A stretch of 64,000 nucleotides of DNA from a virus. The position numbers and the translations under genes are program-made. Location of the stretch: IMG/VR virus record IMGVR_UViG_3300012944_000005; one strand, given 5' to 3'. The number at the start of each line of letters is the position of its first letter. The first letter of the stretch is position 1. The notes under the pieces were generated by a model, which was not told the DNA's origin, did no database searches, and worked only from the letters and a program-made list of their open reading frames with translations. This document shows, in pieces, positions 11,647-45,850 of the stretch.

Positions 11647-12321
11647 ATGCCCCCTATCAGCCATTTTATTTATCCAGCCGCTCCGCGCGGCGCTGAATCC
11701 GGTATCTGCGCCGTCTGCGGCTTCGAGGGCGATGGCCAGTACGGCCGCGACATTCTGGACATCACGACCAGCAATGTTACGGCGCTGTTTGAATTGGCTT
11801 ACGGCCATATATGCGCGCCCTGCTATGGATTGTGGTCGAAGCCGAAATACTGGCATCGCGGGATCTTCGCCACTCGCGGCGGGGTGCGATTCCCAGTGAT
11901 CTCGCGCGAGAGCGTCACGCCTGAGCGTCCGACATGGTCGCAGGCGCTGCGCGCGCTCTCGCCCGATGAACCGCGCGCCATCGTCCTGACCACCGATCCA
12001 AAGAAACGCGTCTGGCCGTTTGCTCGTGTGTCATCCGGCGATACGGCGTGGATTTATATCCACGATCCATCGCGGGGCGTAAGCAGCAACCGCCCGGTCT
12101 CAATCAAGAAGTTGCTCGCCGCGCTCGACTTGGTTGAGCAGGTTTACGCGCTCGGCTGGTCCAAGCCCTGGATCGCCAGGAGCCTTATGGGCTCTCAAAA
12201 CGCCATCGTATCCACCGGCCTCGACGTCGCGCTCAATCTCGATCGGCGTCTAGCCCAAATCCGCAATGAGCCCGAGTTTCTGCCCGCGCTCATCGTTGCC
12301 CAAAAGGAGATTCCCGAATGA
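11647..12321 (+). CDS. csf1: Csf1-like (type IV Cas8-like) zinc-finger protein
   Basis: 224 aa with two CxxC pairs (ICAVCG and ICAPCYG) near the N-terminus, as in the Csf1 family. ATGA overlap with the next gene. Confidence 0.55.
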   Translation: MPPISHFIYPAAPRGAESGICAVCGFEGDGQYGRDILDITTSNVTALFELAYGHICAPCYGLWSKPKYWHRGIFATRGGVRFPVISRESVTPERPTWSQALRALSPDEPRAIVLTTDPKKRVWPFARVSSGDTAWIYIHDPSRGVSSNRPVSIKKLLAALDLVEQVYALGWSKPWIARSLMGSQNAIVSTGLDVALNLDRRLAQIRNEPEFLPALIVAQKEIPE

Positions 12322-13751: not shown

Positions 13752-14476
13752 TTCACCTGTCCGACCTCGACCGCTACGGCGAGCGGCTCGCCGGATTGCA
13801 GATGCGCCCGCTGCGCGTCACGGCGCGCACGGTGACGCCCGTTGCCAGCAATGATCCGGTAGCGCTCGACGCCGTACTGGCGTGGACGATGGTTGTTGAG
13901 CAATTGGAAGGTCGGCCCTTTCCTCGCGTGGAAGGGCCGGTCTGGCAACCATTGCCGCTTGCGCTTGACCGCCTGATTGACGGCTTACCGCTCTGGCAGT
14001 CAACGGACTTTATGCCGGTCGGGCTGGCGAGGGGGATGAGCCATATCCACCGCCGCACGGGCGATAACCCCTACGCGATGCGCGGATTGCAAGAGACGCT
14101 CTCCCAGAAGCGCCCGCGCCGATACCCGAGTGAACTGGCCGGGCCATATATGAATTTCAGGGTTCCGGAGCGGCGGAACGTGGCGGAGAGTTGGTCGGCG
14201 ACCTGTGTCGGCAATAAGGCGGAGATCGAGCGGCTATTGAGCTACGTCCAGTTCTTCGGCAAAGCGCCGAAGCGTGGCTGCGGGTTCATATTCGATTGGG
14301 AAGTGGAATTGCTCGATGAGCTATTTTCGCTCTATAACGAATCCGGCGAGCCGCTGCGCCCGATCCCGGTCGAGTGGGACACGGGCGTCTGTGTCCAACA
14401 GGGATGGACGCCCCCGTACTGGCTGAAAGAGACATGGCGTCCCTGTCTCAGTTCAGCAGCGGCGAGGTTTGTATGA
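13739..14476 (+). CDS. csf3: Csf3/Cas5-like RAMP protein
   Basis: 245 aa from ATG 13739 (GGAGCGGAGG upstream). Has PVALDAVLAW and the C-terminal glycine-rich loop FFGKAPKRGCGFIFDWEV typical of RAMPs. Confidence 0.5.
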   Translation: MRGVVHLSDLDRYGERLAGLQMRPLRVTARTVTPVASNDPVALDAVLAWTMVVEQLEGRPFPRVEGPVWQPLPLALDRLIDGLPLWQSTDFMPVGLARGMSHIHRRTGDNPYAMRGLQETLSQKRPRRYPSELAGPYMNFRVPERRNVAESWSATCVGNKAEIERLLSYVQFFGKAPKRGCGFIFDWEVELLDELFSLYNESGEPLRPIPVEWDTGVCVQQGWTPPYWLKETWRPCLSSAAARFV

Positions 14477-14736
14477 TCGTAGGAGATTTATTCATCACGC
14501 CGCACGCCGTGCGGCAGTTTCGCGAGCGCATACCGGGAATGTGGCGGCTCAAATACGAGCAGGCGCTAGGGCTCATCCTTCGCGCGCTGCGAGAAAACAC
14601 GGCCAGCGTCAAGCCGACGCCAAACGGCTGTGGCGTCTCTATTCGCGTGCGGGGGGAGTTGAACTTTCGCGCGATTGCAGCGCGGGGCGAGGGCGTCAAG
14701 CCAGCGGTCGTAACGATTCTGCGGAGCGGAAAATGA
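14473..14736 (+). CDS. small operon protein (87 aa), unknown fold
   Basis: ATGA overlaps at both ends. Contains the motif ITPHAVRQFRER. No confident family. Confidence 0.45.
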   Translation: MIVGDLFITPHAVRQFRERIPGMWRLKYEQALGLILRALRENTASVKPTPNGCGVSIRVRGELNFRAIAARGEGVKPAVVTILRSGK

Positions 14737-15530
14737 AGGATTGGGCAGATTACGGCATCACCGGGAAAGTTCATTATGGCCAGCCGGTCAACGCCGAGCC
14801 GTACCGCCGCGTGATTCAGCGCCGAATGGCAAAGTCTCACGTTGCAATCGAGGAATTCCTTCACCTGGTCGGCAAGTCGGGCTACGTGGCCGTGAGTTTT
14901 GGCGTTGATTCCCTTGTGGCCTACGACCTGGCGCGGCGGATCTATCCGGAGATCTGTGCCGCGTGGGTCAACCAGGGGCCGCTCGCCGAGTGGCCTGACT
15001 GTCTCGCGCTGAAGAATCTGATGGTTGCCGGCGGAATACCTCTCACAGAGATCGCGCCCGACGTGACGCTCTACGACTGGTACAAGCAAAACGGGATCGA
15101 TTTCGGCGCTAACATGAACAACGCTGAGGATGAGCGACTAAATAAGGCGCTGATCTACGACCCTATCGAGCGATTCCACCAGGAAGAGAATCGCAAAGGC
15201 GTTATTTGGGGACTGCGCTGGCGAGGCGAGGGCGGGCATCGGGCTTTTGTGATCAAGGGCAATGGTGAGCTTTATCAGCGCAAGGCTGATGGTATCTGGG
15301 TCTGCTCGCCGGTCGGCAACTGGTCGAAGAGCGAGATATGGGCCTACCTGGATTTGCACGGTCTGCCCTACCCGGCTTTCTACGATCTAGACCGCGAGAA
15401 GATCCGCAACGGCCCACCTATTGGGGTCACGGGGCTGCATATGGGGCGTCTGGTGCGGTTTCGGATGCTGTTCCCGGAGATGTGGCGGGTGTTCTGTATG
15501 GAATTTGAGGAGATTCAACGATATGGCTGA
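14733..15530 (+). CDS. CysH-like PAPS reductase / PP-loop superfamily protein
   Basis: 265 aa from ATG 14733. PP-loop-like VAVSFGVDSLVAYDL, resembling the SFG-x-D/E-S motif of the PAPS reductase family. Confidence 0.6.
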   Translation: MKDWADYGITGKVHYGQPVNAEPYRRVIQRRMAKSHVAIEEFLHLVGKSGYVAVSFGVDSLVAYDLARRIYPEICAAWVNQGPLAEWPDCLALKNLMVAGGIPLTEIAPDVTLYDWYKQNGIDFGANMNNAEDERLNKALIYDPIERFHQEENRKGVIWGLRWRGEGGHRAFVIKGNGELYQRKADGIWVCSPVGNWSKSEIWAYLDLHGLPYPAFYDLDREKIRNGPPIGVTGLHMGRLVRFRMLFPEMWRVFCMEFEEIQRYG

Positions 15531-15768
15531 ACCTGTAAAACTGGACGATATCCTCATCTCCCTGGAGATATATGAGACATGGAACAAGCTGGCCTCGCAG
15601 GTCTCCACCTGTTTACCTGCCGGCGTCTCGCCGCAGGATATTGGCGACGAGGAAGCGGAAAAGAACGCTGATGGAAGTCTGACGATATTCTGTCGCGCGA
15701 AGGGCAAGCGGATCGCCCAATTGCGCATACCAGCCACTCACTGGCAATGGAGGTTTCCGGCAAATTGA
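15523..15768 (+). CDS. hypothetical operon protein (81 aa)
   Basis: MAEPVKLDDILISLEIYETW... Overlaps the upstream stop by 8 nt and the next start by 1 nt. Confidence 0.4.
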   Translation: MAEPVKLDDILISLEIYETWNKLASQVSTCLPAGVSPQDIGDEEAEKNADGSLTIFCRAKGKRIAQLRIPATHWQWRFPAN

Positions 15769-16664
15769 TGATGATCTATCTCGGACTCGATAATCAGGAG
15801 AAAGACAGGCGGATCGCTGATTACTGCGCGGCGCACGGTGTTGAGAAAGTCGTCATCCTATCGCCGGCGAAGTTTACGCTCTCCTGCTCGTTTGCCAACT
15901 CGGAAGTAGTCGAATGGGCTGAGATCATTGAATACAAATTCTTTTATAGGCTGATTCAGGAGATCAACAGCAAGACGCTGGTCGTAGTTAATGAATGCCT
16001 GCGGACGCAAAACCGCTACGATCTGACTTATAACTGCATTCGCCACTTCCTGAATCAGACCAGCCACCAGTTAATCTTCCAGCACTTGCCGATAATCGAT
16101 TCGATCGAGGACTTCATGATTCTCTTCGACTTTGACACGCGCAGCCGTTGGAAGCGCGAGAAGTTTAACGCAAAACCGCTGGGCGAGAGCCGGATCGAGG
16201 TCGCGCCCGTCGCGGTCGTCTTCAATACGATTCCGGTCGAGATCGACGCCAAACTGAAGGACGCCTATCGGAAGGAGAAAGAGCGACTACTCGCCCACAT
16301 CGGTCTGAAAGATCCGCACACGATCCCGCGTAATCTCTATCTGATGAGTGGCAAAGCAAAGCTGAAACACGTCGAGTCCGGAGGCGCCGGACTCTTCGCC
16401 GAGCGCCGTCATTATGTCGGCCGCAACAATCGCTTCAAGATCGAAACTCTTCAGACCTACAAGGAGCCGAGCTATCCAGATGCGCCTTATATGGTCTTCG
16501 AGTTTTGTCACAACTTCATCGACTTCGTGGACTTCATGGCGCTGTCGCGCCAGTCGTCCTTCGACGTCATGGTCGCCGACCTGAAGGTCGATCAATGGTA
16601 TCTGGCCCGATACCGCGAATGGGCTGAGAGGCTAAGGAATGCCACGGCAAGTTTACAGCGATAA
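15768..16664 (+). CDS. hypothetical operon protein (298 aa)
   Basis: Long ORF with ordinary globular composition. TGATG junction upstream (alternative ATG at 15747) and a 26-nt overlap downstream. No motif recognised. Confidence 0.5.
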   Translation: MMIYLGLDNQEKDRRIADYCAAHGVEKVVILSPAKFTLSCSFANSEVVEWAEIIEYKFFYRLIQEINSKTLVVVNECLRTQNRYDLTYNCIRHFLNQTSHQLIFQHLPIIDSIEDFMILFDFDTRSRWKREKFNAKPLGESRIEVAPVAVVFNTIPVEIDAKLKDAYRKEKERLLAHIGLKDPHTIPRNLYLMSGKAKLKHVESGGAGLFAERRHYVGRNNRFKIETLQTYKEPSYPDAPYMVFEFCHNFIDFVDFMALSRQSSFDVMVADLKVDQWYLARYREWAERLRNATASLQR

Positions 16665-17766
16665 AAAGAACGTCCTCGACGCTGCGCGCGGGCGCATGGT
16701 GTTTGTCTTTGATCATTTTGAGCAGATTATCGTTTCGGTGAGCGGCGGCAAGGATTCGACCGTCCTGGCGCACCTAGCGCTTGCCGAGGCGCGCCGGCGC
16801 CAGCGCAAGATCGGGCTGTTTTTTCTGGATGAGGAGGCGATGTATCAGAGTAGCGTGGATATGGTGGAATACCTGATGGGGATTTTCCCGGAAAACGTGA
16901 ATCGCCTCTGGCTACAAATTCCTTTCAACCTGACCAGCGCGACATCATTTCAGGAAAGTCAGATGCGATGCTGGGAACCGGGCAAGCATAAAGACTGGAT
17001 GCGCCAGAAGGGGCGCAACAATATCTGCGCGAAGCCTTGGCAGGAAAAGGAGGAGTCGTTCAGGAGCGGCTATAAATGGCTGGATTTCTACGGCGTGATT
17101 GAGAATTTCGAGCGATGTTATAAGGGCGCCGCTTTTCTGGTCGGCGAGCGCGCCACGGAAAGCCCGAACCGATGGCGCAGCGTGGCAAAGAATCCGGTAA
17201 TCATCGGGGGGACGAAGGTTTTCTGGGGGACACCTCGCGGCGACAATTTTATCTTTAAGCCGATCTACGACTGGAACTTCCATGATGTATGGCACTACAT
17301 TCATGACGAGAAACTGAGGTACTCGAAGATTTACGATTTTCAGTTAAAAAAAGGCTATCCGATCAATGAGATGCGGATAAGCTCCCTTATCCACGAACGA
17401 TCATTCAAAAGTTTGTGCGACCTACCTGAGTTCGAGCCGAAGACTTTTGAAAAACTCTGTCGGCGCATCAAGGGAATCGCATTTGTTCAGGAGACGGGAA
17501 AAAACGCGAAAGTCTTCAAGGCGCGGAAGCTGCCGAAGAACTTCAAATCGTGGATCACCTACCGCGATTTTTTGCTCGAAACATATCCCGACCCGGCGAA
17601 CAAGCCCATCTTCAAGAAGAGATTCGGCAAGCATCTGATCAATGAATACGTGGCGCGCCAGCATTGTCGTCAGCTTGTTTGCAATGATTACGAAAACAAC
17701 CTGCCGGTCGATAACCGCCCTGATCCGCGCGAGGAATTGATTCGCTATTATCAGGAGGTTTTATGA
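16639..17766 (+). CDS. IbrA/DndC-like PAPS-reductase-domain protein with C-terminal extension
   Basis: 375 aa. Canonical PP-loop SVSGGKDSTVLAHL plus a C-terminal extension of roughly 170 aa, as in IbrA-type (PAPS_reduct plus DUF3440) proteins. Confidence 0.6.
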   Translation: MPRQVYSDKKNVLDAARGRMVFVFDHFEQIIVSVSGGKDSTVLAHLALAEARRRQRKIGLFFLDEEAMYQSSVDMVEYLMGIFPENVNRLWLQIPFNLTSATSFQESQMRCWEPGKHKDWMRQKGRNNICAKPWQEKEESFRSGYKWLDFYGVIENFERCYKGAAFLVGERATESPNRWRSVAKNPVIIGGTKVFWGTPRGDNFIFKPIYDWNFHDVWHYIHDEKLRYSKIYDFQLKKGYPINEMRISSLIHERSFKSLCDLPEFEPKTFEKLCRRIKGIAFVQETGKNAKVFKARKLPKNFKSWITYRDFLLETYPDPANKPIFKKRFGKHLINEYVARQHCRQLVCNDYENNLPVDNRPDPREELIRYYQEVL

Positions 17767-18365
17767 CCTACTACGTTGATACGATTGAGCAATTCTACGC
17801 CATCCGAGAGAACCTGCAGCCGGCCTATATCACCTCGAAAAAGCACGGGCGTATTGAGGTTCCTTGCGCAAATACGCTCCTGGTCAACACGGAGTTAATC
17901 AAAGCGAATAATTACAATCCGAATTACGTGCCGAGGGAAAAGATGGCACTGCTACGGCAGTCCATTCTGGATAACGGCTTTTGTTCTCCTATTGTGACAA
18001 TATGGGACGACGAGCAGGAGCGATTCATCATAGTGGACGGCTTCCACCGTGACACAATGGGCGATAAGGAGTGGCTCGATCTGGATTATATTCCGCTGGT
18101 TGTCTTGAAGCACGGCATAGTGCAGCGAATGACCGCGACTGTGCAGTTTAACAAAGCGCGCGGCGTCCACCAAGTCGACCTCGACGCCGAAGTCATACGG
18201 GCGCTGATCGAGCAAAGTTTGAGCGAGGAAGAGATTGCGATCCATCTCGGCCTTGACCTGGAAACCATTCATCGCTACAAGCAATTGACCGGCGTCGCTG
18301 AGCTGTTCAAGAACTCAGCGTATTCGATGAGCTGGGAAATGGTCGAAGAAGAGGAGACGGCGTGA
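17763..18365 (+). CDS. ParB/Srx-domain protein (IbrB/DndB-like)
   Basis: 200 aa with ParB N-terminal-domain motif IIVDGFHRD. AGGAGG RBS. ATGA overlap upstream. Confidence 0.6.
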   Translation: MTYYVDTIEQFYAIRENLQPAYITSKKHGRIEVPCANTLLVNTELIKANNYNPNYVPREKMALLRQSILDNGFCSPIVTIWDDEQERFIIVDGFHRDTMGDKEWLDLDYIPLVVLKHGIVQRMTATVQFNKARGVHQVDLDAEVIRALIEQSLSEEEIAIHLGLDLETIHRYKQLTGVAELFKNSAYSMSWEMVEEEETA

Positions 18366-19000
18366 GCGACTGGGATTATGGCGGTATCCACCGCGCTTAT
18401 GATATGTCGGGCGTGATCGAGTTGCCCAACAACTCGCGCGTCGAGGTCTGCGATTGGACGGATCGGTTGCCAAGTTTCATGCTTGGCGCCGACACGATCT
18501 TTGTCGATCCGCCGTGGAATGCTGGAAATGCTAGGACATTTTATACAAAAGCTGACAAGACGGTTGCCGCTTTCAGCTTCGAATGGTTTTCCGACCGCCT
18601 ATTTTGCAGACTGGACCAGATCGCGCCGAATTATCTATTCATCGAGATGGGCAAGGAGTGGCTCGGCTGGTATCTTGAACGCTGCCGCGAGCGCTATAAA
18701 TATGTCACTTTCTATAACTCGACCTATTATAAGAAGCGCGAGAACAAGTGTTACGTGATCCACGCCACGGATAACCATTCGCGCCGGCGCTACAAAGAGC
18801 TTGAAGATCTGGACGAGGCAGCGATCATCGAATGGCTGTGCGCCAACCACGATTATCAATGCATCGGCGATCTATGCATGGGCTGCGGGTTAGTCGGTAG
18901 ACACGCTTTTCTAAACGGCAAACGGTTCGTCGGCACGGAACTGAACCCGAAGAGATTGGCTATTCTGGTCGATTTTATTCGGAAAACAAAAGGAGATTGA
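18362..19000 (+). CDS. DNA amino-methyltransferase (N6-adenine or N4-cytosine, beta-class motif order)
   Basis: 212 aa, GTG start overlapping the upstream stop. Motif IV IFVDPPWN comes before the AdoMet motif I-like IGDLCMGCGLVG. Confidence 0.65.
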   Translation: MSDWDYGGIHRAYDMSGVIELPNNSRVEVCDWTDRLPSFMLGADTIFVDPPWNAGNARTFYTKADKTVAAFSFEWFSDRLFCRLDQIAPNYLFIEMGKEWLGWYLERCRERYKYVTFYNSTYYKKRENKCYVIHATDNHSRRRYKELEDLDEAAIIEWLCANHDYQCIGDLCMGCGLVGRHAFLNGKRFVGTELNPKRLAILVDFIRKTKGD

Positions 19001-19624: not shown

Positions 19625-21007
19625 TTAGCGGAAGAACGTGCCCTGCTCGAACTGGCCGCGTGGCACTCTCACCCAGTTTGCAATCGCGAGCGCATCACCT
19701 CGATCCGGCGAACGCCCGAGACGCCTCTTGATGTCGTCTTTCGATTCCAGCTTGATTCGTCCGCGCGAGTCGTAGGCGAACTTGACGTTGCTCAGGTCCG
19801 CCGCCATCTTCCGGTCATCAGGCAGGGCCAGATCGCCAGCCTTCAGCGCCTCCCGTAGCGCCCACCACATTTCAGCGCGCGCATTGACGAATTTCCCATC
19901 TTCTCGCGCCGCGCTTCCACCAATGCACGCTTTGACGCTGACACCTTGCTCTTTTAGTCGGTCCGTAACGCCGCCACCGAGTCCAGCGTCGTCAACGCCG
20001 AGCGACAGAGCACCGAGCGCCTTCAATTGCCCTGCCGTCTCCATTAGATTCTGACCGTGGCGCACGGATGGTCGGCTGACAATGCCGCCCTCGAAGATCG
20101 AGAAAATGACGGTTTCATCCTGGCCGTAGCGCGCGATATCGCAGCCCACGCAAGCCAGTTTCGCGCCCGGCTGGGGTTCAACCCATCGTTTCTGCGCGGC
20201 TTCGACCAGCGAAAGCGGGATCAGAACGTCATCGCCTTCTTCCGGCCAGAGCCCGCGCACGCGCGCGCGATATAAGCCGCTCTCCCGTCCTCCATATTCC
20301 TGCTCTCGCTCGGCGATCCATTCCCGCGTCACGGCGCCGGGGACAACGATGCGCCCTTCCCTGACGTTTGGATGGTCTTCGGCAGACAGCCGCAGGACGT
20401 TCCACAGTCCCGAATCTTCCTTGCGCTTCGCCTCACTCGTCGGGTCTGTCGGGTTGCCGATGGCCAGAAAGCGATCATCGTTGCCGACCGCGATGCCCTC
20501 GGATGCCTCCCAGATGCCGGAATCAACCCCAATTGCCTCGTCGAAGATGATCATAATTCGCGGCGCGTGGAAGCCTTGAAAGCGCGTCGGGTCGTCGGTC
20601 GAGAGACCGATCGCAAACCAATTATCTGCGAGGATAATTTGGGTTTTATGGACAGCGCCTCCCAGTGGAAATTTCGAGGCCAGGTACGCCCCGCGTAGCT
20701 CCCGCCAAAGCAGGCTTTCGACTTGTATCCAGGTCGGCGCCGTCGTGATTACTTTGCTGTTCGGATTCGAATAAAGAAACCAGAGAGCGAGACGAGCCGC
20801 GAGGTATGTTTTTCCGACGGAATTGCCCGCCGTTACGAGTGTGCGTCGATGATCCCGCACGCTCTCCAATACAGACATCTGCTGCGGGGTGAGATATTCA
20901 GCGCCGAGCACATTGCGGATAAACCACGCCGGGTCATTCCGGCTCCGCTCCAGCACTGTCTTGGCTTGGGTTCGATTCATCACTCGCCATTTGGGCCAGG
21001 ACTGCAA
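19625..21007 (-). CDS. terL: terminase large subunit
   Basis: Walker A LVTAGNSVGKTYLA, Walker B IMIIFDEA, and a C-terminal nuclease-type region. The start may be at MNRTQ (20980). Confidence 0.8.
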   Translation of the reverse strand: MQSWPKWRVMNRTQAKTVLERSRNDPAWFIRNVLGAEYLTPQQMSVLESVRDHRRTLVTAGNSVGKTYLAARLALWFLYSNPNSKVITTAPTWIQVESLLWRELRGAYLASKFPLGGAVHKTQIILADNWFAIGLSTDDPTRFQGFHAPRIMIIFDEAIGVDSGIWEASEGIAVGNDDRFLAIGNPTDPTSEAKRKEDSGLWNVLRLSAEDHPNVREGRIVVPGAVTREWIAEREQEYGGRESGLYRARVRGLWPEEGDDVLIPLSLVEAAQKRWVEPQPGAKLACVGCDIARYGQDETVIFSIFEGGIVSRPSVRHGQNLMETAGQLKALGALSLGVDDAGLGGGVTDRLKEQGVSVKACIGGSAAREDGKFVNARAEMWWALREALKAGDLALPDDRKMAADLSNVKFAYDSRGRIKLESKDDIKRRLGRSPDRGDALAIANWVRVPRGQFEQGTFFR

Positions 21008-28943: not shown

Positions 28944-29308
28944 TTGCCGTTGTTGTTTCGAACCTGCTGATCCAGGCTATCGAGCTTCTCGGCGATCTTG
29001 GTCTGGGTCTTCATCGACTCTTTATGCGTTTGGTCGACCATCACGCTTTGGGTTCTGAGCGCCGCCATAAACACCTTGCCCTGATCTTCGAACCGGCGCG
29101 CGTTGTCTTCGCGCTCCTGTCTCAACGCCTCCGTGAACAGCTTTCCCTGCTCTTCCCAGCGTTGAAGGTTTTCCTTTCGCTCGATGTCCGCGGCATCCAG
29201 TCGCTTTTCAATGGCCGGCCACATTTTCTTGTAAAGAAAGAGGCCGAGCGCCACCAGTACTAACACCGCGATCCCGTTTTTCGAGGCTATCTCGATCCAT
29301 TGCTCCAT
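28940..29308 (-). CDS. N-terminal TM plus coiled-coil protein
   Basis: IAVLVLVALGLFLY TM segment followed by a charged coiled coil. Confidence 0.4.
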   Translation of the reverse strand: MEQWIEIASKNGIAVLVLVALGLFLYKKMWPAIEKRLDAADIERKENLQRWEEQGKLFTEALRQEREDNARRFEDQGKVFMAALRTQSVMVDQTHKESMKTQTKIAEKLDSLDQQVRNNNGK

Positions 29309-29460
29309 TGGTCCTTTGATAGTTTTCTGGGTTTAACGACAGGTGGAAGGGTAAAGGAAAGGCATGCCTTATTTTGGAAAGCAAAAGAGTGCCCGCCACA
29401 GGCGCCCCTTTTGTCAGTCAACGATGGAGAATAATGGCTGGGCAGTGGAACAAGGAAATA

Positions 29461-29880
29461 CTATTCGGTTTTCGACTGATATTTTTCGCTTACAAAATAG
29501 AGCGGTCTGCGCGCACCACGGGCGGCTTCGGTCTTGCCTCCCTGGCGACGGACTTCGAGAATGTCCCGCTCGACCAGGTCGAAGAGCATCAGATCAAGAC
29601 GGCCAGCCGAAAGCAGCGTCTCTTCAGCGATATGCTCCGGATCGTTGGCGCCGTTCTGTACGACCTCGACAATGTCCACTTCATCCGGCGTCAGCGCCGC
29701 CATCAAGTCGCCGTATTTCGCCTCCTGCTCGCGAATCAGCTTCCGAATCATCGTTGAGAGCCACGCCGATTGCGAGCGAGCGCCGGTGAGAGCGACCGCG
29801 CGGCGGAATTTCGTTTGGATAGATTTCGGAAGACCTTTGAGCCTGATTGAATTACCTCTCGACATAGTTGTTACCATCAT
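29461..29880 (-). CDS. ribbon-helix-helix DNA-binding protein with C-terminal winged-helix-like domain
   Basis: Start at ATGATG 29880/29877 with GAGGAG upstream. SIRLKGLPKSIQTKFRRAVALTGARSQSAWLSTMIRKLIRE fits a beta-alpha-alpha RHH pattern. Confidence 0.5.
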   Translation of the reverse strand: MMVTTMSRGNSIRLKGLPKSIQTKFRRAVALTGARSQSAWLSTMIRKLIREQEAKYGDLMAALTPDEVDIVEVVQNGANDPEHIAEETLLSAGRLDLMLFDLVERDILEVRRQGGKTEAARGARRPLYFVSEKYQSKTE

Positions 29881-29894
29881 CTCTCCTCTTCCGT

Positions 29895-29918
29895 AAAAAG
29901 CGGGGCCAGTGTCCCCGC
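29895..29918 (-). terminator. rho-independent terminator downstream of the CRISPR array
   Basis: Minus strand reads GCGGGG-ACACTGG-CCCCGC followed by TTTTT (plus-strand A-run at 29895-29899). A second GC-rich hairpin sits at 29921-29940. Confidence 0.55.
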
Positions 29919-29972
29919 GTTGGGGCCGCATGCGGGGCCGCGTTTGTTAAAGTAGCTGACATCAATTCCCAT

Positions 29973-30162
29973 CTTTCTGATAATGTCGGCTCATCCATTG
30001 AACATCAATTGCTACGAGGATTCGCAGAAATGGAGAAGCGCAGGATCAGGTGCTTTCAATGGCTCATCCATTGAACATCAATTGCTACGTTTGAGATCCC
30101 GTATATTCCCCATTGTCGTCACACCCTTTCAATGGCTCATCCATTGAACATCAATTGCTACG
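29973..30162 (-). CRISPR. mini CRISPR array: 3 repeats (37 nt) and 2 spacers (36 nt)
   Basis: R3 (30126-30162) and R2 (30053-30089) are identical: CTTTCAATGGCTCATCCATTGAACATCAATTGCTACG. R1 (29973-30016) keeps 29 nt and is disrupted by 4-nt and 2-nt insertions. Spacers are at 30017-30052 and 30090-30125. Orientation is inferred from the cas gene, the degenerate distal repeat and the terminator. Confidence 0.85.
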
Positions 30163-30170
30163 GCACAAAC

Positions 30171-31817
30171 TCACGCTGCATTCATTGGACTTATAGGCTT
30201 AATAGCCTTCAAAAGCTGCGAGTGGTTAACCGATGCCGAAAACCCCGTCACCGCTCGCAAATAGTCCTGCACGATCCGCAGATAGTAGAGCGCCGCCGTC
30301 GCGTCTTGGTCCTCGACATGACGCTCAGCACACTCGCGGATCAGTTCGTGACCCGGCGCTATATGCTGCCCACACTCATCGCAGGTTTGCGTCGAATATG
30401 CCGCTGGATGACCCTGCAGATCACGCCCGCGTTTCTTCATCGCCTCCGCGATATAACCGCGTAGAGTATGCAAACTAGCCCATTGGCGGCGCTTCTGTGA
30501 TGCCTCACTGATGCGATCATCCACCGTCCGCTCTTGCCATTCGCCCGTCTCTTCGTGCTCTTCCTTCCGCGCCTTCTTGCGCTTTCCAGCCGCCTCCGCC
30601 ATCCGCTTCAGCCCCAAATCGCCTTCCCACGCGACGGTGTCATAGTTGTCGGCGATCCAGGCCGCGATGCAGCGATAGATGTAGTCGCGCGCGGCAATCC
30701 AATCAATCTGCGCGGCCCGGTATCGGCGTAGGTTCGTGTCGTGCCAAAAATGCCAATCCTCCAAAAACTCATATGAGATGCCAGCCTCAAAGAGTGTCCG
30801 CCGTATCCGTTGCAGCCCGCCCGCGCGCATTTTGACGACGCCCGCCATTGACGCGCGCGCCTCGTCGGGCCAAACCGAGCGATCCACACCTGCGAGATCG
30901 ATCTTGCAGGCTTCGAGATGGTCATCCATCTTGCGCTGGGCGTCTCGAATCAGCCGGATATCGCGCAGCATTGGGCGATCGACGACGCCCTGCGATTCGA
31001 GTCGCTTAATGAATTTGCGATCCTGATTGCGGCTCAAGTCGTAAGGCAATCGCAGTTCTCGGAAATCGCCGGCGCTATCCGCTAGCATGCCAATACGAAT
31101 GCAATCGCCCATATCGCGCCATCCGAGATCGAGGCCGGCGACGCGGCCAACGGACGGCGCTTTCGGATGCGGTGGAACCTGCAACGAGAAAACCAGCGAC
31201 CACTTCCATTCAAACGGCCGCTCGTGGAAGCCGGAGAGCGCGATGCCTTTGATCAGTGCGCCATCTGGAAGCGGGCGATCCATCACGATTTCAAATGGGA
31301 TTGTGATTTCATCGTACGGCGTGTGGATCACGAAATGCCCGCGCGTCGGGCCCTGAGCCTCCCGAACATAGGCGCGGTTTTCCGAGTTTGAATGAATCCA
31401 AGTGGTAGGCTCGCTAAAGCTGCCGAACTCCATCGGAAAGAGCATGCGCTCAAGACAGCGCTTTGGCTTCGGCGCGCCACCCTGTCTTTTTGCGAATCGC
31501 TGTTGTGACTTTCGGAATTGCTCATGAACCGTGTAGTAATATCGAAAATTCAGCGCGTCTTTGCTGGCCTTCGCGCGCTCGTACAAAATGCCCCCCTTGC
31601 CATTTTTCGTCAGTTTAGCAAACTGCTCTTTCCGCATCTCCTTGCTGGCGTCTTTGAATGCGCCGCAAAAAGCTTCGTGGCGCTCGGCAAGGTCACTATA
31701 GAGCGCATTCATCGCCTTGCCCGTATCCCAGATTTCTTGGGGTAAGTCGCCAATAATGCGGACGTCGTATTTGTATGCCAGTGTCGGCATGTCCGGGTTG
31801 TTCAGTTTTCTCGTCAT
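30171..31817 (-). CDS. cas12: compact Cas12/TnpB-like RuvC nuclease (type V effector candidate)
   Basis: RuvC-I RVAGLDLGW, RuvC-II DTVAWEGDLGLK, zinc ribbon STQTCDECG...IRECAERH, RuvC-III EDQDATAALYYL. 548 aa from ATG 31817 (alternatives GTG 31880 and ATG 31790). The stop is 8 nt from repeat R3. Confidence 0.8.
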   Translation of the reverse strand: MTRKLNNPDMPTLAYKYDVRIIGDLPQEIWDTGKAMNALYSDLAERHEAFCGAFKDASKEMRKEQFAKLTKNGKGGILYERAKASKDALNFRYYYTVHEQFRKSQQRFAKRQGGAPKPKRCLERMLFPMEFGSFSEPTTWIHSNSENRAYVREAQGPTRGHFVIHTPYDEITIPFEIVMDRPLPDGALIKGIALSGFHERPFEWKWSLVFSLQVPPHPKAPSVGRVAGLDLGWRDMGDCIRIGMLADSAGDFRELRLPYDLSRNQDRKFIKRLESQGVVDRPMLRDIRLIRDAQRKMDDHLEACKIDLAGVDRSVWPDEARASMAGVVKMRAGGLQRIRRTLFEAGISYEFLEDWHFWHDTNLRRYRAAQIDWIAARDYIYRCIAAWIADNYDTVAWEGDLGLKRMAEAAGKRKKARKEEHEETGEWQERTVDDRISEASQKRRQWASLHTLRGYIAEAMKKRGRDLQGHPAAYSTQTCDECGQHIAPGHELIRECAERHVEDQDATAALYYLRIVQDYLRAVTGFSASVNHSQLLKAIKPISPMNAA

Positions 31818-31870
31818 ATGCCCTCCATCTCCCCAACCTTCTCCAGCGAGCGCCCGAAGACGCCGCCATC

Positions 31871-32173
31871 CTATATCCACTGTTTCACGATCCAGCAGAA
31901 GAACAGCGTCAACGCCGGAAGGATAAACCCTCTCACGAATAGCTTGATCATTTTCTGGTTAAACGTCTTATCCTCGTCGTCGCTCTTCGTGTCCTGCCAT
32001 GTCACTAGCCGAATAACAGAGGAAAAACCGATCGCAACTGGCACGCTCAGCCGCGCAATGCCAAATGTCGGCGAGACAAACCATCCCCACACGATACTAA
32101 GAACGTAGCCGTACCAAGTGGACAGCGCCGCCCATGTCGCTATAAAGCCAACAAACATAAACAATGCTTTCAT
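31871..32173 (-). CDS. small multi-pass membrane protein
   Basis: Start at MKALFMFVGFIATWAAL (ATG 32173). Three hydrophobic segments. Immediately upstream of the cas12-like gene. Confidence 0.45.
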   Translation of the reverse strand: MKALFMFVGFIATWAALSTWYGYVLSIVWGWFVSPTFGIARLSVPVAIGFSSVIRLVTWQDTKSDDEDKTFNQKMIKLFVRGFILPALTLFFCWIVKQWI

Positions 32174-32279
32174 ACGTCTTCTCTCCTTTTTGTCGTTTCC
32201 GCTGTCTCCCCCAACCCCGCCGCCGGCTCCCACATCGGGCAGCGGATCGGTTTGAATTCGAGTTCTTGCTGTGAGTTGG

Positions 32280-33485
32280 TCATTTCCCGTTCAGATCCTG
32301 ATAACGATTGATCATGTCGCCTAACACTTGCGCGCATTGCGGGACGACCGCGTTGCCACACGCTTTGAGGGCGGCGACACGCCATCGAGCCAATCCGATG
32401 GAAATCCCATCAATTGCAAAACCCAGCGCGGATTTAAACGCGCTGCGGACTTTACCGACCACACCAGCAAGACCTCCCCGATGTCCTGTATCCGCATCAA
32501 GTATCGAAACTGAGAAAGCAGTGCGCCGGTCAAAGAGGACTCTCGGCTCTTCCCATTCGTGCTGTGGCTCTCCTGGTCGGGCTGGCCATCGCGCAACATC
32601 AGCGCAAGAGTGGGACGATCCGTCGCGCCAGGCGATGCGCTGCGATTGGTTCGCCCTGTGCCTGAATCTATCGCTGTCGGCGTCGGCCAACTGTTCACTG
32701 CCGCCGTCCTGAGCCCATCGCCGCTCTTCGCTGTGGCTCCCTTGCGGTTCGTGTTGCCGTCCACTGTTGGCGTCGGCCACATATTCGCGAATGATTCGAG
32801 GTTGGGCGATTTGCGCTGGCGTTCGGATGGGCAATCCTGATTGATCTGCGCTTTCGGCGTCGGCCATCGCCTCACCGCATAATTCAAATCCACCTGCCGC
32901 TTCTTGCCGTCGGGCGTCTGGCCGGTTGGCGTCATAGATCCGCCCTTCTCTCCGTCCGATGCTCGTGCTGTAGGCCACGAACCACACTCGTTCTCTTCCG
33001 TGCGGCGCGCCAACGTCCTCAGCAGCCAACTCGACGGGCAGGATCTCGTAACCTCTAGCCGCAAACTCACGCGCAAGCCATTCGCTGAATTGAAGTCCCT
33101 CAACGTCGAGGCTAAGCACGCCGCGAGGGTTCTCCGCCAGCAGCCACAGGAGCGGCCGTTCTTGCGCGTCGTTGATTTCAGACACCAGGCGCAAATACTC
33201 AGGCCAGAGCCAGCGATCGTCGGCGGAGCCTCGTCGCTGGCCAGCGACGCTGGCGGGTTGGCAGGGCGGTCCTCCGACAAGCGCGTTAATTCGTCCGCAG
33301 TGATCGGAAATAAGTTTCCCTGTGAGAGTTTTGACATTCGTGTGTCTCCAAATCTTCGGCCAGTGTTTTTCAAGGACAACGTTACAGAACGGCTCAAGCT
33401 CGCACTGCCCGACGCATGTCCAGTTGGCTCTTTCGAGTCCCAAATCGAATCCGCCGATACCTGTGAAGATGCTAAAGAAGTTCAA
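32280..33485 (-). CDS. dcm: DNA (cytosine-5)-methyltransferase, apparently frame-interrupted
   Basis: Frame A has motif I FTGIGGFDLG, motif IV GGPPCQPAS, motif VI ENPRGVL, motif VIII HGRERVWFVA and motif X CGNAVVPQ. The overlapping +1 frame (32321..33397) has the TRD-type WPTP repeats and LMGFPSDW. Confidence 0.6.
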   Translation of the reverse strand: MNFFSIFTGIGGFDLGLERANWTCVGQCELEPFCNVVLEKHWPKIWRHTNVKTLTGKLISDHCGRINALVGGPPCQPASVAGQRRGSADDRWLWPEYLRLVSEINDAQERPLLWLLAENPRGVLSLDVEGLQFSEWLAREFAARGYEILPVELAAEDVGAPHGRERVWFVAYSTSIGRREGRIYDANRPDARRQEAAGGFELCGEAMADAESADQSGLPIRTPAQIAQPRIIREYVADANSGRQHEPQGSHSEERRWAQDGGSEQLADADSDRFRHRANQSQRIAWRDGSSHSCADVARWPARPGEPQHEWEEPRVLFDRRTAFSVSILDADTGHRGGLAGVVGKVRSAFKSALGFAIDGISIGLARWRVAALKACGNAVVPQCAQVLGDMINRYQDLNGK

Positions 33486-38832: not shown

Positions 38833-39366
38833 TCAGACCTCCTGCCTTGCCAACCATCGCAGCACTTCCCTTGCCGCCTTCGCGTCGCCGAGTGCCCTAT
38901 GTCCGCCCGGCTCGACGCCGATGTTGTGGCAAACGGTTTCGAGCCGCTGCCAGCGGTCAAAGCCGTGGAATTCCATCCAGGCGTTCATCAAACAGTGCCA
39001 TTCGTGGTTGCGGGCCTCGGGGCCAAATGTCTGCTCGATCATCCGGGAATCGAATGGCGCGTTATAGGCGAGCAGGGCCGAGCCGCAAATGATCTGATGA
39101 ACGAGCGGCCATAATTCATCGGCCGCTATCGCCTGATCGGCCATCTCGGTTGTAATGCCGTGAATGTTCGTCGCGGCTGGCGGGATCGGCTTCGAAAGCT
39201 TGACCAATGATGCAAACTCCAACGTGTAGGCCGCGTCAACAATCGCAATCTCAACGATCTGGTCATCTTCGCCGAGACCAGTCGTTTCCGTATCGATGAT
39301 CAAGGCTTTGCTCGCGATAAATCGCTGCGCCCATTCTACGATTCGTTTCTTGCGGTCATCGGACAT
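38833..39366 (-). CDS. DnaQ-like 3'-5' exonuclease (DEDDh)
   Basis: ExoI LIIDTETTGL, ExoII LLAYNAPFDSRMI, ExoIII HRALGDAKAA. Confidence 0.75.
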   Translation of the reverse strand: MSDDRKKRIVEWAQRFIASKALIIDTETTGLGEDDQIVEIAIVDAAYTLEFASLVKLSKPIPPAATNIHGITTEMADQAIAADELWPLVHQIICGSALLAYNAPFDSRMIEQTFGPEARNHEWHCLMNAWMEFHGFDRWQRLETVCHNIGVEPGGHRALGDAKAAREVLRWLARQEV

Positions 39367-41596: not shown

Positions 41597-41932
41597 TCAT
41601 CTTGCGCGGTCTGCGCAAAGCAGCTCGAAGTACCAGCCGCATTTCAGACACAGGTAAAGGTTGTTGCGTTCGTGGCCGGCGATTTCGCCGGCGCAGGCGT
41701 CCCACGGACAGGCTTTTAGCTTGCGCCCGTGGACGGTCATCGGCCTGCGAATCGAGCCGTGTGGCGGAAGCGTCAAGAGCGCGAGCATTTCGGCTTTGAC
41801 CTCCGCGACCTGAGCGCGGTCGGCGTCAGTGATGACGCCTTTCCGATCCGCGCTCAACTTCACCTTATCGCCATCCGCCCAGACGTGGACGCCGCGCTCT
41901 CCGAGGTTGTTGATGATTTCGGTTGCGGTCAT
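41597..41932 (-). CDS. hypothetical protein with C-terminal zinc-ribbon
   Basis: Start at MTATEIINNLGERGVHVW (ATGA overlap). C-terminal CPWDAC...CLKCG. Confidence 0.4.
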   Translation of the reverse strand: MTATEIINNLGERGVHVWADGDKVKLSADRKGVITDADRAQVAEVKAEMLALLTLPPHGSIRRPMTVHGRKLKACPWDACAGEIAGHERNNLYLCLKCGWYFELLCADRAR

Positions 41933-42894
41933 ACGCTCACCGTCTCGGTCTCCTGGACAGGCTCGGCGGTCGCGGCGTTGGCGGCTGCGGCCTTTTGCCA
42001 AATGGCAAGCATGGTCTCCAGTTCGTCCGGGGTTTTGTCCGAGAGCTTCATCTGATAGGCGTTCCAGTCGGTTTCCGTTTTCCCTTGTGACAAATAGACA
42101 TCACGCAGGTCGCCGATAATTGATTTACGAGCCTCTTCGTAGGCAGGATCAACCGCAGGCGCTACGGGCTTGGGCGCAGGCTCGGCCTGCCTCACTGGCT
42201 CAGGCACCGCGCCGTCCGACAGCCACGCGACGAGGATTTCGGCGAGCTCGCGACCGGGTTTCTTGAAGGTCTTCCCGTCGAGTTTGGCGCAGCGGGTCTT
42301 AGTGATGACGCCGACGTGATCGATGTCAAGTTCCATCGCCACGTCATGCTCATAGTCCATGCCTTCTCTTTGGATTGGGGCCATCCCGACCTTGCGCACC
42401 ACCGTCTGGCCGCGCTCGTTCTGTTCCTGGACGTAATCAATCTTCGATCGCATCGTGGTGATGACGTGGCATCTCGACCGAACGATCGTGTCGATGAACC
42501 GGGTATGCAGCGGTGTCACATCTGCCCAGGCCGTGTAACTGTTCTTGGTTTTCTGCTTGCGGATAGCGGCTTCGTGGAGCTCGAGAATGCCATCCTTTGA
42601 GTTCCATTCGTGCGTGAGCGAGTCGATGATCAACACGTCATATCCGGCTTTCTCCGCCGCCTCAATTGCTTCCATGTAGTTATCCGGATGGAAGTTTTCG
42701 AGTTCGATAACATCAAACTCGAAGATGTCTGAATATTTACTTGCTGAGCCGCGTTCGGTGTCAATGAGGGCGATTCTGCCCAGGTGCATGCCGATATTCA
42801 GGGCGGTATAGGTCTTGCCACTGCCCGACGATCCCGCGATTGACAGTCTCAGCCTGCTTTGCTTTTTCGTGGCCTTACGAAACTGAATTGCCAT
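41929..42894 (-). CDS. AAA_24/Sak4-like recombination ATPase
   Basis: Walker A IAGSSGSGKTYTAL and Walker B VLIIDSLTHEW. Confidence 0.6.
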   Translation of the reverse strand: MAIQFRKATKKQSRLRLSIAGSSGSGKTYTALNIGMHLGRIALIDTERGSASKYSDIFEFDVIELENFHPDNYMEAIEAAEKAGYDVLIIDSLTHEWNSKDGILELHEAAIRKQKTKNSYTAWADVTPLHTRFIDTIVRSRCHVITTMRSKIDYVQEQNERGQTVVRKVGMAPIQREGMDYEHDVAMELDIDHVGVITKTRCAKLDGKTFKKPGRELAEILVAWLSDGAVPEPVRQAEPAPKPVAPAVDPAYEEARKSIIGDLRDVYLSQGKTETDWNAYQMKLSDKTPDELETMLAIWQKAAAANAATAEPVQETETVSV

Positions 42895-44409: not shown

Positions 44410-44827
44410 AAATTGAAACTTAAAAGATCAGGCCCGAGCGCGGCGTCACGATCCCCATCGCTTTTATCGCCGCGCCCGGTCTCGCGGAATGGAAAACTCC
44501 ATTTCCCCCATCCCGCGCAATCGAAGCCCTTCCCTTTGGCTCCGACACTTGAAGGATCAGCGTGCATTCCACGTGGCGTCTGCGAGCGTCCAATACCGCC
44601 GCCAGCCGAGGCCGGGAAAGAATGCGTAATTGCCGACGAGGCGCGTCGCCTCCGAGATGCAAGGCCGATCTCGATCAGTCGCGATCAGCGTCGTCGGCTC
44701 GCTCAGGCTGTTGGTCTCAACGATTTCCACCGGGTTTCTCCCGCGAAGGCGACGCTTCCAACGTCGCCCCCGCTGCATTTCCAACCGCCCGCGTGACGGT
44801 CACCGTTTCGGCCGAACGCCGAAGCTC

Positions 44828-45184
44828 TCACGCCGTTCGCAGCGCGGATCGCGCGCCACGCTCGCGGCTCTGCAAATAACTCTCGATTGATTCGACTCGG
44901 TACCTGATCTGGCCGCCTTCAGTGCGAATGAAGGGTATGCGCGGTGCTGGGCGCTCTTTTCGCCACTTCGCCAGACTCTCAATGCTCACGTCGAGCAGCT
45001 CGGCCGCTTGCCGCTCGGTCATCAACTGACTGCGCGAGACGACGCGCTCAAGCCGGCTCTCAATCTGGTGAGCACGAAGGTCCTGCTGTTCCGCCCGCTC
45101 GACGAGCGTCTTGACCAGTTGCTCCAGGAGCGCGATTCGCCCGAGCAATTGAGCGGTCGAGTTGTCGATGAATGGAGATTTCAC
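44828..45184 (-). CDS. excisionase/MerR-like HTH protein with N-terminal coiled coil
   Basis: MTERQAAELLDVSIESLAKWRKERPAPRIPFIR resembles Xis-type HTH_17 domains. Confidence 0.5.
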   Translation of the reverse strand: MKSPFIDNSTAQLLGRIALLEQLVKTLVERAEQQDLRAHQIESRLERVVSRSQLMTERQAAELLDVSIESLAKWRKERPAPRIPFIRTEGGQIRYRVESIESYLQSRERGARSALRTA

Positions 45185-45483
45185 GCCGCTATCCTTTCCG
45201 CGTCGCGCTTCGCGGCAGCTTTGAAATGTTCCATATCGCGCCTATTGCCTGCGAGCAACGCCTTCTCTGCCCTGCAGAGGCTGAGGGCGATGATCGGAAC
45301 AGTCGAAATTGATTTGGGAATATTGAGAGCTTCGAGGGTCAGACCAGCGTCACAGAGCATCCACGCGAACTTGACCGCACATTCCGGGCCGACGCCTTTG
45401 GCGAGCGATTCGGCGGCTTTCAAGGCTTTTTTGCAGATTTTGCAGCGTGGAATTGCGATCTTCATAAGTTCCCTCGGTTTCAA
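45181..45483 (-). CDS. DUF6011-like small protein
   Basis: CKICKKALKAAESLAKGVGPEC matches the CxxC...S...G-x-GP-x-C pattern. Confidence 0.45.
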   Translation of the reverse strand: MKPRELMKIAIPRCKICKKALKAAESLAKGVGPECAVKFAWMLCDAGLTLEALNIPKSISTVPIIALSLCRAEKALLAGNRRDMEHFKAAAKRDAERIAA

Positions 45484-45519
45484 GATTGTCGGTCTGCGTG
45501 ACTGACATGGGGAATATTA

Positions 45520-45534
45520 TACGATGTTATCGTA
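45520..45534. promoter_or_regulatory. operator-like palindrome TACGAT-N3-ATCGTA
   Basis: Perfect 6+6 inverted repeat tacgatgttatcgta. Confidence 0.5.
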
Positions 45535-45540
45535 CAAGTC

Positions 45541-45555
45541 AACGATATTATCGTA
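45541..45555. promoter_or_regulatory. operator-like palindrome (one mismatch)
   Basis: aacgatattatcgta, 7 nt from the previous copy. Overlaps the stop of the 45548 gene. Confidence 0.45.
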
Positions 45556-45850
45556 AGTTTTGAGAGAAAAATTGCGTGAGCGCGTCGGCTTGGGGAACCA
45601 AGTAGCGCAAATCAAAATCGAGAACTAAGGCAGCGCGAATCGCGACACGTAGGCTGGGCTTTGCCTGCTTACTGTTTCTATAATCGCTGTAAGTAGCTGG
45701 CTTTACACCGATTAACTCTGCAAACTGGGTATCGGTGAGATGAGGAAACTTCCTCTCTTTTTCCTGCTGGAGGCGATCCATGTCTATCTCGATCGTCTCT
45801 AGCAATGCAAACGCCTGCCTATTTAGTTGTTTTCCATCTTCGATAGCCAT
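45548..45850 (-). CDS. XRE-family HTH regulator (Cro-like, heads the leftward early operon)
   Basis: LTDTQFAELIGVKPATYSDYRNSK helix-turn-helix. Divergent from the 45915 gene. Confidence 0.6.
   Translation of the reverse strand: MAIEDGKQLNRQAFALLETIEIDMDRLQQEKERKFPHLTDTQFAELIGVKPATYSDYRNSKQAKPSLRVAIRAALVLDFDLRYLVPQADALTQFFSQNLR

Follow-up and report, generated by a model that had tools for sequence, protein, structure and literature searches.

A phage-borne CRISPR mini-array and its Cas12m-like effector: a probable type V-M-like locus with two guides

What could a phage do with a CRISPR array that holds two spacers and is accompanied by no genes for acquiring more? This question is raised by the IMG/VR virus record IMGVR_UViG_3300012944_000005, a 64,000-nucleotide (nt) stretch of DNA (the window, throughout this text) in which a short repeat array directly follows a gene for a compact Cas12-like protein. 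The array lies on the minus strand, and the coordinates of its repeats are given on the plus strand. Our answer, which we hold with a probability of about 0.72 and which leans on analogy with characterised proteins, is that effector gene and array form a self-contained type V-M-like CRISPR-Cas locus, carried by a temperate tailed phage, and that this locus would silence its targets by RNA-guided DNA binding. It is very probable that the locus is a genuine type V-M-like cassette and that it is read on the minus strand; for the mechanism, the analogy makes us lean towards binding only.

The array and its transcription

The array consists of two identical 37-nt repeats and a degenerate third copy, which repeat with a period of 73 nt from start to start and enclose two 36-nt spacers (Table 1), as the initial annotation had read from the letters of the DNA. 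The 64-kb window contains exactly three copies of the 29-nt core of the repeat, GGCTCATCCATTGAACATCAATTGCTACG, which was found in none of 100 dinucleotide-preserving shuffles, while neither spacer has a second copy in the window even when three mismatches are allowed. On the minus strand, the repeat is laid out as CGTAGCAATTGATG-TTCAATGG-ATGAG-CCATTGAA-AG. When folded, it gave a hairpin (-8.7 kcal/mol, z = -2.4) whose 8-bp stem encloses a 5-nt loop and which stops 2 nt short of the spacer; only 4 of 200 shuffles folded as well. This hairpin had been described at the outset as a type V-like handle, and that description can now be narrowed: the effector matches Cas12m (see below), and the handle resembles the canonical one of Cas12m in part. 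Experimentally mapped Cas12m CRISPR RNAs (crRNAs; PMC11013384 supplement) and the repeat of the window have in common a 5' GUAGCAA, a 21-nt stem-loop and a 2-nt tail. The Ms crRNA, GUAGCAACGCCUAG-CUCAG-GGGCUCGAAAA-CUGAG-AC, can thus be written as GUAGCAA-CGCCUAG-CUCAG-GGGCUCGAAAA-CUGAG-AC beside GUAGCAA-UUGAUG-UUCAAUGG-AUGAG-CCAUUGAA-AG in the window; the stems of two homologous loci (L004 and L005) start with the same CUCAG as the Ms stem.

The degenerate repeat lies farthest from the effector gene, and its damage falls in the hairpin half, as had been noted. Its 5' 29 nt are conserved, but the insertions, first given as 4 nt and 2 nt, proved on alignment to be 3 nt and 4 nt, both in the 3' arm, for a total length of 44 nt. 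On folding, this copy did not form the 8-bp hairpin (minimum free energy -4.1 kcal/mol, z = +0.7). Directly after it, with no spacer between, we found a 15-nt fragment, GGAATTGATGTCAGC, that matches the 5' half of the repeat of a sister lineage (the L004 type) at 15 of 16 positions, with an alignment score that was reached by none of approximately 3000 random phage windows. Distally, the array is thus eroded: its terminal repeat is broken, and a piece of another repeat adjoins it.

The array starts 8 nt past the stop codon of the effector gene and is followed, on the same strand, by a GC hairpin and T5 terminator (GCGGGG-ACACTGG-CCCCGC at 29918-29900 on the minus strand, then TTTTT); both features had been named in the initial annotation and were found again here. 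The whole cassette stands at the end of a string of replication and methylase genes on the same strand, and a promoter scan found no minus-strand promoter-like site in 29400-32400. Given the 8-nt gap and the lack of a minus-strand promoter site in this interval, the simplest reading is that transcription reads through from cas12m into the array and yields one transcript. On the plus strand, one sigma-70-like match (CTGACA-17-GATAAT, 10 of 12 positions) was observed at 29956-29984, aimed into the array in antisense. One match compares with a mean of 1.7 in shuffles of the region and is within chance, and plus-strand transcription of the array was rejected because this sole promoter-like match falls below the shuffle mean.

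We found no inverted copy of the repeat, no anti-repeat and no complement resembling a trans-activating CRISPR RNA (tracrRNA) in 29000-31500 or elsewhere in the window, which fits the tracrRNA-free mode of Cas12m. Rfam and tRNA scans of the window gave no match. The absence of cas1, cas2 and cas4, first stated for the window, extends to the whole phage: no called gene matched a Cas1, Cas2 or Cas4 family, and none of the three was among the top PADLOC matches. Taken together, these results support the view that the element is a genuine, phage-borne CRISPR mini-array of the adjacent compact type V effector.

The effector and its relatives

The effector gene encodes a product of 548 amino acids (aa) from its ATG, although the mechanical open reading frame (ORF) reaches further, to a GTG at 31880. 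The RuvC triad of the protein is D230/E398/D505 and its zinc finger is of the CCCH type (C479, C482, C496 and H500); all of these residues are invariant across 13 homologues, down to 31% identity. When the 548-aa product was searched against the PDB as a single sequence, the one significant match was a Cas12m (6.6e-6), and generic TnpB/Cas12f models gave weak, sub-threshold matches: Pfam Cas12f1-like_TNB reached 2.6e-5, under the family cut-off, and NCBIfam guided_TnpB 7.7e-6, with 25 bits against a cut-off of 100. A family profile built from 13 metagenomic homologues and searched against the PDB matched TfCas12m (23vw_A, the sequence of which is the TfCas12m of Bigelyte et al.) at 4.4e-30, UnCas12m4a at 3.8e-21 and Cas12m2 at 1e-5, and Cas12m entries outranked TnpB, Cas12p and Cas12f in this search. 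In addition, the PADLOC Cas12u1 (V-U1) model matched the effector at 2e-23.

The predicted structure points the same way. The AlphaFold2 model of the effector (predicted local distance difference test score, pLDDT, 82) was compared with the PDB using Foldseek, and the top four matches were Cas12m2 (8hhm, 8hhl and 8hio) and GoCas12m (8pm4), with E-values of 4e-19 to 6e-15 and template modelling (TM) scores of 0.56-0.64; Cas12f and TnpB came next, at 1e-11 or weaker. Pairwise identity is 21% to TfCas12m and 24% to the IMG/VR-derived UnCas12m. The effector thus shows sequence homology to Cas12m, the compact bilobed WED/REC/RuvC/TNB fold and a triad of a Cas12m type: the types in the Cas12m clades are HEK/HQK, HDD, DED/NED and DND, and D-E-D is that of clades 3 and 4. 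These results, from sequence and from a predicted model, support an assignment of the effector as a relative of Cas12m (type V-M, formerly V-U1). After the RuvC-II glutamate, residues ~409-445 form a helical insertion rich in Lys, Arg and Glu, KRKKARKEEHEETGEWQERTVDDRISEASQKRRQ, which is present in some family members and absent from others and has a pLDDT of 58-69 in the model.

To place the protein within its family, 1.84 billion cluster representatives (clusters defined at 50% identity) were scanned with HMMER, which gave 79 clusters at E <= 1e-30 and 493 at E <= 1e-3. The effector is therefore part of a sizeable lineage (~80 clusters), of which protein-based searches found no member in 185,579 reference genomes. 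Among the full-length family representatives, D-E-D is kept in 110 of 128 and the CCCH finger in ~118 of 128. The repeat pattern was found neither in IMG/VR nor in 185,579 representative bacterial and archaeal genomes, a protein-based search for the locus in IMG/VR returned two distant relatives, and a megablast of the locus against phages gave no match. In the eight homologue loci that were examined, the neighbouring genes are phage- or mobile-element-like.

The homologues bear directly on whether array and effector belong together. It had been considered initially that the repeats might be a regulatory or recombination element unrelated to the nuclease, and this is contradicted by the homologues, in which the stop codon of the effector is likewise followed at once by the same repeat. 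At the locus L001, where the effector is 69% identical, at least 23 copies of GTGAAAATAGGTGTTCAACGGGAGAGCCGTTGAAAG start 2 nt past the stop codon and are separated by spacers of 35-38 nt, all unique save one near-duplicate pair. Three Logan contigs (L002, L004 and L005) end 32-38 nt past the stop codon, within a first repeat of the same design; assemblies usually break at arrays. Furthermore, the two arms of the stem covary between loci (TTCAATGG/CCATTGAA, TTCAACGG/CCGTTGAA, CTCAGCCG/CGG... and TTCAAAGG/CC...), while the loop RWGAR, the AG tail and a 5' G-U-R-G-N-A-A segment are constant. An IMG/VR viral contig with an effector of 26% identity (L010) carries the canonical repeat end GCAGC...GCUGCGAC. 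On the evidence of these sequences, the array belongs to this effector lineage. The long, length-variable array of L001 shows that spacer acquisition is possible in the lineage, presumably by means of adaptation proteins acting in trans.

Three further observations were made at related loci. The near-duplicate pair in L001, spacers 6 (7028-7063) and 22 (8191-8217), reads AATGGTGTTACCGACAATCAGCCGCGCG and AACAGCGTTACCGACAATCAGCCGCGC, which looks as if two variants of one protospacer had been acquired independently. Downstream of P0015 (606 aa, 28% identity), L007 carries at 3067-3830 an uneven series of very GC-rich short hairpins that end in GCGAC, for example GCGGCGACGCCGCGAC, as does L008; the series is not a regular array. 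GCGAC is the typical 3' end of Cas12m repeats. Finally, a single metagenome scan with the repeat pattern returned only L009 (JGI Ga0137411_1377721), a low-quality contig in which the cas12m region of the same phage is present as an inverted duplicate. Because it is an inverted-duplicate chimera with both ends within the array and many single-base indels, we regard the contig as an assembly or sequencing artefact; nonetheless, it shows that the first spacer recurs unchanged in a second sample.

Mode of action and alternative explanations

If the analogy with Cas12m holds, gene and array would be transcribed as one RNA, and the effector would bind the 3' hairpin of each repeat and process the precursor of the crRNAs (pre-crRNA) without a tracrRNA. 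Two crRNAs would result, each with a handle of ~30-35 nt and a guide of ~17-20 nt, and the broken last repeat would only close the array. Each complex would find a DNA target that has a protospacer-adjacent motif (PAM) at its flank and bind it tightly, and, once bound, would keep a rival mobile element or a host gene from being transcribed or replicated, from which the phage would profit. In this way, two DNA sites would be silenced, most plausibly in a competing phage or plasmid and possibly in the host. Since there is no cas1 or cas2, the two guides would be effectively hard-wired; new spacers would come only via adaptation proteins in trans, or else the spacers may have been inherited from an ancestor.

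This proposal draws on the Cas12m proteins with a D-E-D triad, namely TfCas12m, MsCas12m, ApCas12m and UnCas12m (Bigelyte et al., 2024, PMC11013384; Wu et al., 2022; Omura et al., 2023, PMC10442227). These four belong to a set of eight Cas12m variants with D-E-D, H-D-D or N-D-D triads, of which none cleaved double-stranded DNA (dsDNA) and six bound it in a PAM-dependent manner, and purified Ms and Go complexes showed neither target-RNA nor collateral cleavage (PMC11013384). Cas12m processes its own pre-crRNA to a mature crRNA of ~50-60 nt, with a handle of ~30-33 nt and a guide of 17-20 nt, and its binding alone guards cells against plasmids and phages through a block of transcription or replication (PMC11013384, PMC10442227, bioRxiv 10.64898/2026.03.26.714355). 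The window locus has in common with the D-E-D systems a single compact effector with a WED-REC-RuvC-zinc-finger architecture, the D-E-D triad, a 36-37-nt repeat, an adjacent array, and the lack of both a tracrRNA and adaptation genes. It differs from them in that the REC region is shorter (548 aa in all, versus 536-628), the zinc finger has CCCH in place of CCCC, the repeat tail is AG rather than AC, the array begins within ~10 nt of the stop codon, and the lineage has been seen solely on phage-like metagenomic contigs.

Several points weigh against the proposal. The window effector is only 21-24% identical to the characterised Cas12m proteins, so that extending their biochemistry to it is an extrapolation. 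The predicted handle of the window family is a plain hairpin (8-bp stem, 5-nt loop), not the Cas12m pseudoknot (5-bp stem, 11-nt pseudoknot-forming loop), and inspection of five family repeats revealed no conserved GCC/GGC pseudoknot pairing. For neither spacer was a protospacer found. The spacer search that had been proposed with the initial annotation returned only chance-level 19-24-nt BLAST matches (E = 3) in GenBank phages and PLSDB plasmids and, with exact 26-mers and 20-mers, nothing in IMG/VR; no match turned up in the phage itself either. The 22 spacers of L001 likewise had no match in phages, plasmids, the window or the other fetched loci. The first spacer is identical in the second sample (L009), and there is therefore no sign of ongoing spacer acquisition in this phage. 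Lastly, the retention of D-E-D in 110 of the 128 representatives can be argued to mean that some catalytic activity is under selection. Pre-crRNA processing does not explain this conservation, because MsCas12m D274A still processes pre-crRNA (PMC11013384).

The conserved triad, invariant also in the 13 homologues, is what favours a different mechanism for the same locus, in which the effector, like Cas12f, Cas12j and Cas-lambda, would cut its targets as an active RNA-guided DNA nuclease. However, not one Cas12m variant in the set of Bigelyte et al., the D-E-D ones included, cleaved dsDNA (PMC11013384), and TfCas12m, the closest solved relative, is among the non-cleaving proteins; we therefore regard target cutting as possible but unlikely. 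The window effector does resemble Cas12j/Cas-phi of huge phages and Cas-lambda in kind, as these are hypercompact phage effectors with short arrays and no adaptation genes. They process their crRNAs themselves without a tracrRNA, and their presumed role is in competition between elements. They are nevertheless different families, matching the window effector far more weakly than Cas12m does (Foldseek E-values of 4e-6 for Cas-phi3, 7odf, and 5e-5 for Cas-lambda2, 9izq), and are active nucleases of 700-800 aa, unlike a 548-aa protein on a temperate phage of 66 kb, which is not a huge phage.

Binding by a Cas12m-like effector also presupposes an array that is in use and is used by this protein. 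The array might instead be the decaying relic of a longer ancestral one, unused and eroding. Its two spacers, the broken terminal repeat with the adjoining fragment, the lack of adaptation genes, the failure to find targets, and the identical spacer in the second sample would all suit such decay, but there is 100% identity between the two functional repeats, the effector has an unbroken ORF that retains all residues invariant in the family, and the 8-nt junction and the terminator are preserved. Degenerate terminal repeats are, moreover, normal in working arrays. We consider a relic improbable. It is extremely improbable that the array serves another machine, either host Cas proteins or the type IV-B-like module of the phage (11647-14476), even though this module has Csf1, Csf2 and Csf3 without an array or Cas6, and phage mini-arrays that use host Cas proteins are known from citations in the passage on virus-encoded mini-CRISPR of bioRxiv 10.64898/2026.09.14.751636. 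In every close relative, the repeat lies against the stop codon of the Cas12m homologue, with which it covaries; it resembles Cas12m crRNAs and is absent from the 185,579 representative genomes, and at the sister loci the 4-8 kb upstream hold no type IV genes. A mini-array for host Cas proteins was rejected on the grounds that the cognate effector abuts the array here and in every close homologue and that the repeat pattern is absent from those genomes.

There is next to no chance that the element is not CRISPR at all but a set of iterons or regulatory binding sites, or else the end of a TnpB-type transposon with its guide RNA. The protein is related to TnpB (the guided_TnpB match at 7.7e-6), with which, as with Cas12f, it has in common the RuvC and zinc-finger (TNB) core of these ancestral RNA-guided nucleases, and the locus adjoins the phage replication module. 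In contrast, the regular repeat-spacer period, the unique spacers, the 23 repeats of L001 with their variable 35-38-nt spacers, and the covariation of the structured repeat between loci all speak for an array, and strong evidence for Cas12m stands against TnpB and Cas12f models that fall far under their cut-offs. A TnpB guide RNA comes singly, not in an array: TnpB uses one long guide RNA at the transposon end, where the window has a CRISPR array. Cas12f works as a dimer and depends on a tracrRNA; the window has no anti-repeat. Iterons and regulatory repeats are effectively refuted by the 23-repeat array and by the same repeat after the stop codon in homologues, and an element of the TnpB or IS200-IS605 type was rejected in view of the repeat-spacer array and the 25 bits of the guided_TnpB match.

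A phage-borne Cas12m-like cassette is not a new kind of system. Phage-encoded Cas12m was already reported in 2024-2026, and the window locus is a divergent further example: viral effectors from landfill viromes were placed with Cas12m (PMC12607003), and the D-E-D protein UnCas12m, characterised by Bigelyte et al. (2024, PMC11013384), was derived from IMG/VR. There is also a likeness in kind, judged by description, to MvCas12m of the myxophage MV-1 (bioRxiv 10.64898/2026.09.14.751636, September 2026), which is phage-encoded with an adjacent short array and a D-E-D triad and has no cas1/2/4, no tracrRNA and no identifiable protospacers. MvCas12m has 610 aa and 8 spacers, versus 548 aa and two spacers with a decayed terminal repeat in the window, and a type IV-B-like module is present in the window phage, which is a difference from the MV-1 case. 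The present locus adds a complete, circularly assembled genome of a temperate phage to the few documented cases of virus-encoded Cas12m. With D-E-D, a CCCH finger, a simpler hairpin handle, 548 aa and, as predicted, a crRNA as its sole guide, the effector is a compact candidate in which to test DNA binding or editing. It also offers a natural setting in which to ask why D-E-D Cas12m proteins keep a catalytic site that is apparently unused on dsDNA. As a hypothesis, a two-guide cassette without adaptation genes fits phages that use CRISPR as a fixed weapon or regulator.

The phage genome and its type IV-B-like module

The ENA assembly k141_3893551 (66,183 nt) is a circular permutation of the same genome, opened at another point than the window. 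At window positions 41909-42049, its two ends share exactly 141 nt, which is the k-mer of the assembly. Since the contig ends overlap in this way and the window runs through the junction, we take the genome to be a complete circle of 66,042 bp, in which the 2 kb beyond the window are the remainder of the tape-measure gene. Structural and lysis genes include those for a portal (DUF4055), a Mu-F-like head protein, the tape-measure protein and a GH19 lysozyme, and genes of the replication type encode a DnaB helicase, a replication initiator, a Sak4-like protein and a DNA methyltransferase. The two tyrosine integrases and the Cro/cI-like helix-turn-helix (HTH) genes indicate that the phage is probably temperate.

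Table 1. Features of the CRISPR locus, the type IV-B-like module and other genes of the phage, in window coordinates
Feature	Coordinates	Strand	Basis or remark
cas12m-like effector gene, 548 aa from ATG	30171..31817	-	translation; ENA gene call also 548 aa
Gap between stop codon and repeat 1, 8 nt, GTTTGTGC	30163..30170	-	homologous loci: gaps of ~2-9 nt
Repeat 1, CGTAGCAATTGATGTTCAATGGATGAGCCATTGAAAG (minus strand)	30126..30162	-	repeat search, shuffles and folding
Spacer 1, GGTGTGACGACAATGGGGAATATACGGGATCTCAAA	30090..30125	-	unique in window; also present in L009, second sample
Repeat 2, same as repeat 1	30053..30089	-	
Spacer 2, CACCTGATCCTGCGCTTCTCCATTTCTGCGAATCCT	30017..30052	-	unique in window
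Terminal degenerate repeat, 44 nt	29973..30016	-	alignment: 5' 29 nt intact, 3' hairpin arm broken by insertions
Decayed fragment of a further repeat, 15 nt, GGAATTGATGTCAGC	29955..29969	-	alignment
Intrinsic terminator	29895..29918	-	6-bp all-GC stem, 7-nt loop, then TTTTT
Type IV-B-like module	11647-19000	+	
Csf1/Cas8-like	11647-12321	+	PADLOC 9e-7
Csf2/Cas7	12318-13751	+	2.2e-30
Csf3/Cas5	13646-14476	+	3.5e-27; Pfam Csf3
PAPS-reductase/CysH-like	14469-15530	+	
PAPS-reductase/CysH-like	16639-17766	+	with DUF3440
ParB_N-like gene	17763-18365	+	
Methylase-like gene	18362-19000	+	
Terminase large subunit	19625-21007		<=37% identical to any cultured phage
DEDDh (RNase T/DnaQ-like) exonuclease	38833-39366	-	PADLOC 'CRISPR-associated DEDDh' 1e-31, PDC-S48 2e-21
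Cro/cI-like HTH genes (HTH repressors)	around 44800-45850		
Tyrosine integrase	48406-49563	+	
Tyrosine integrase	54784-55680	+	

The type IV-B-like module, an insertion with the portal gene on one side and the terminase gene on the other, has no array, Cas6 or DinG. The match of its Csf2/Cas7 spans residues 231-463 only, and the protein has an extra N-terminal region of 230 aa. Virus-encoded type IV-B systems with cysH have been reported for archaeal viruses. A type IV-B-like module beside a Cas12m cassette in one phage is unusual, and this co-residence is not conserved in the sister loci. The phage thus carries two RNA-guided systems that apparently work without target cutting, with a single CRISPR array between them. 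One could imagine that the crRNAs processed by Cas12m, or the same transcript, also load the type IV-B complex, in which case the two hard-wired guides would make up a programmable, non-destructive repressor of a host or rival locus during lysogeny; we consider this highly improbable. The DEDDh gene, in spite of the name of the PADLOC model that it matches, is more likely an exonuclease of the replication module than a cas gene.

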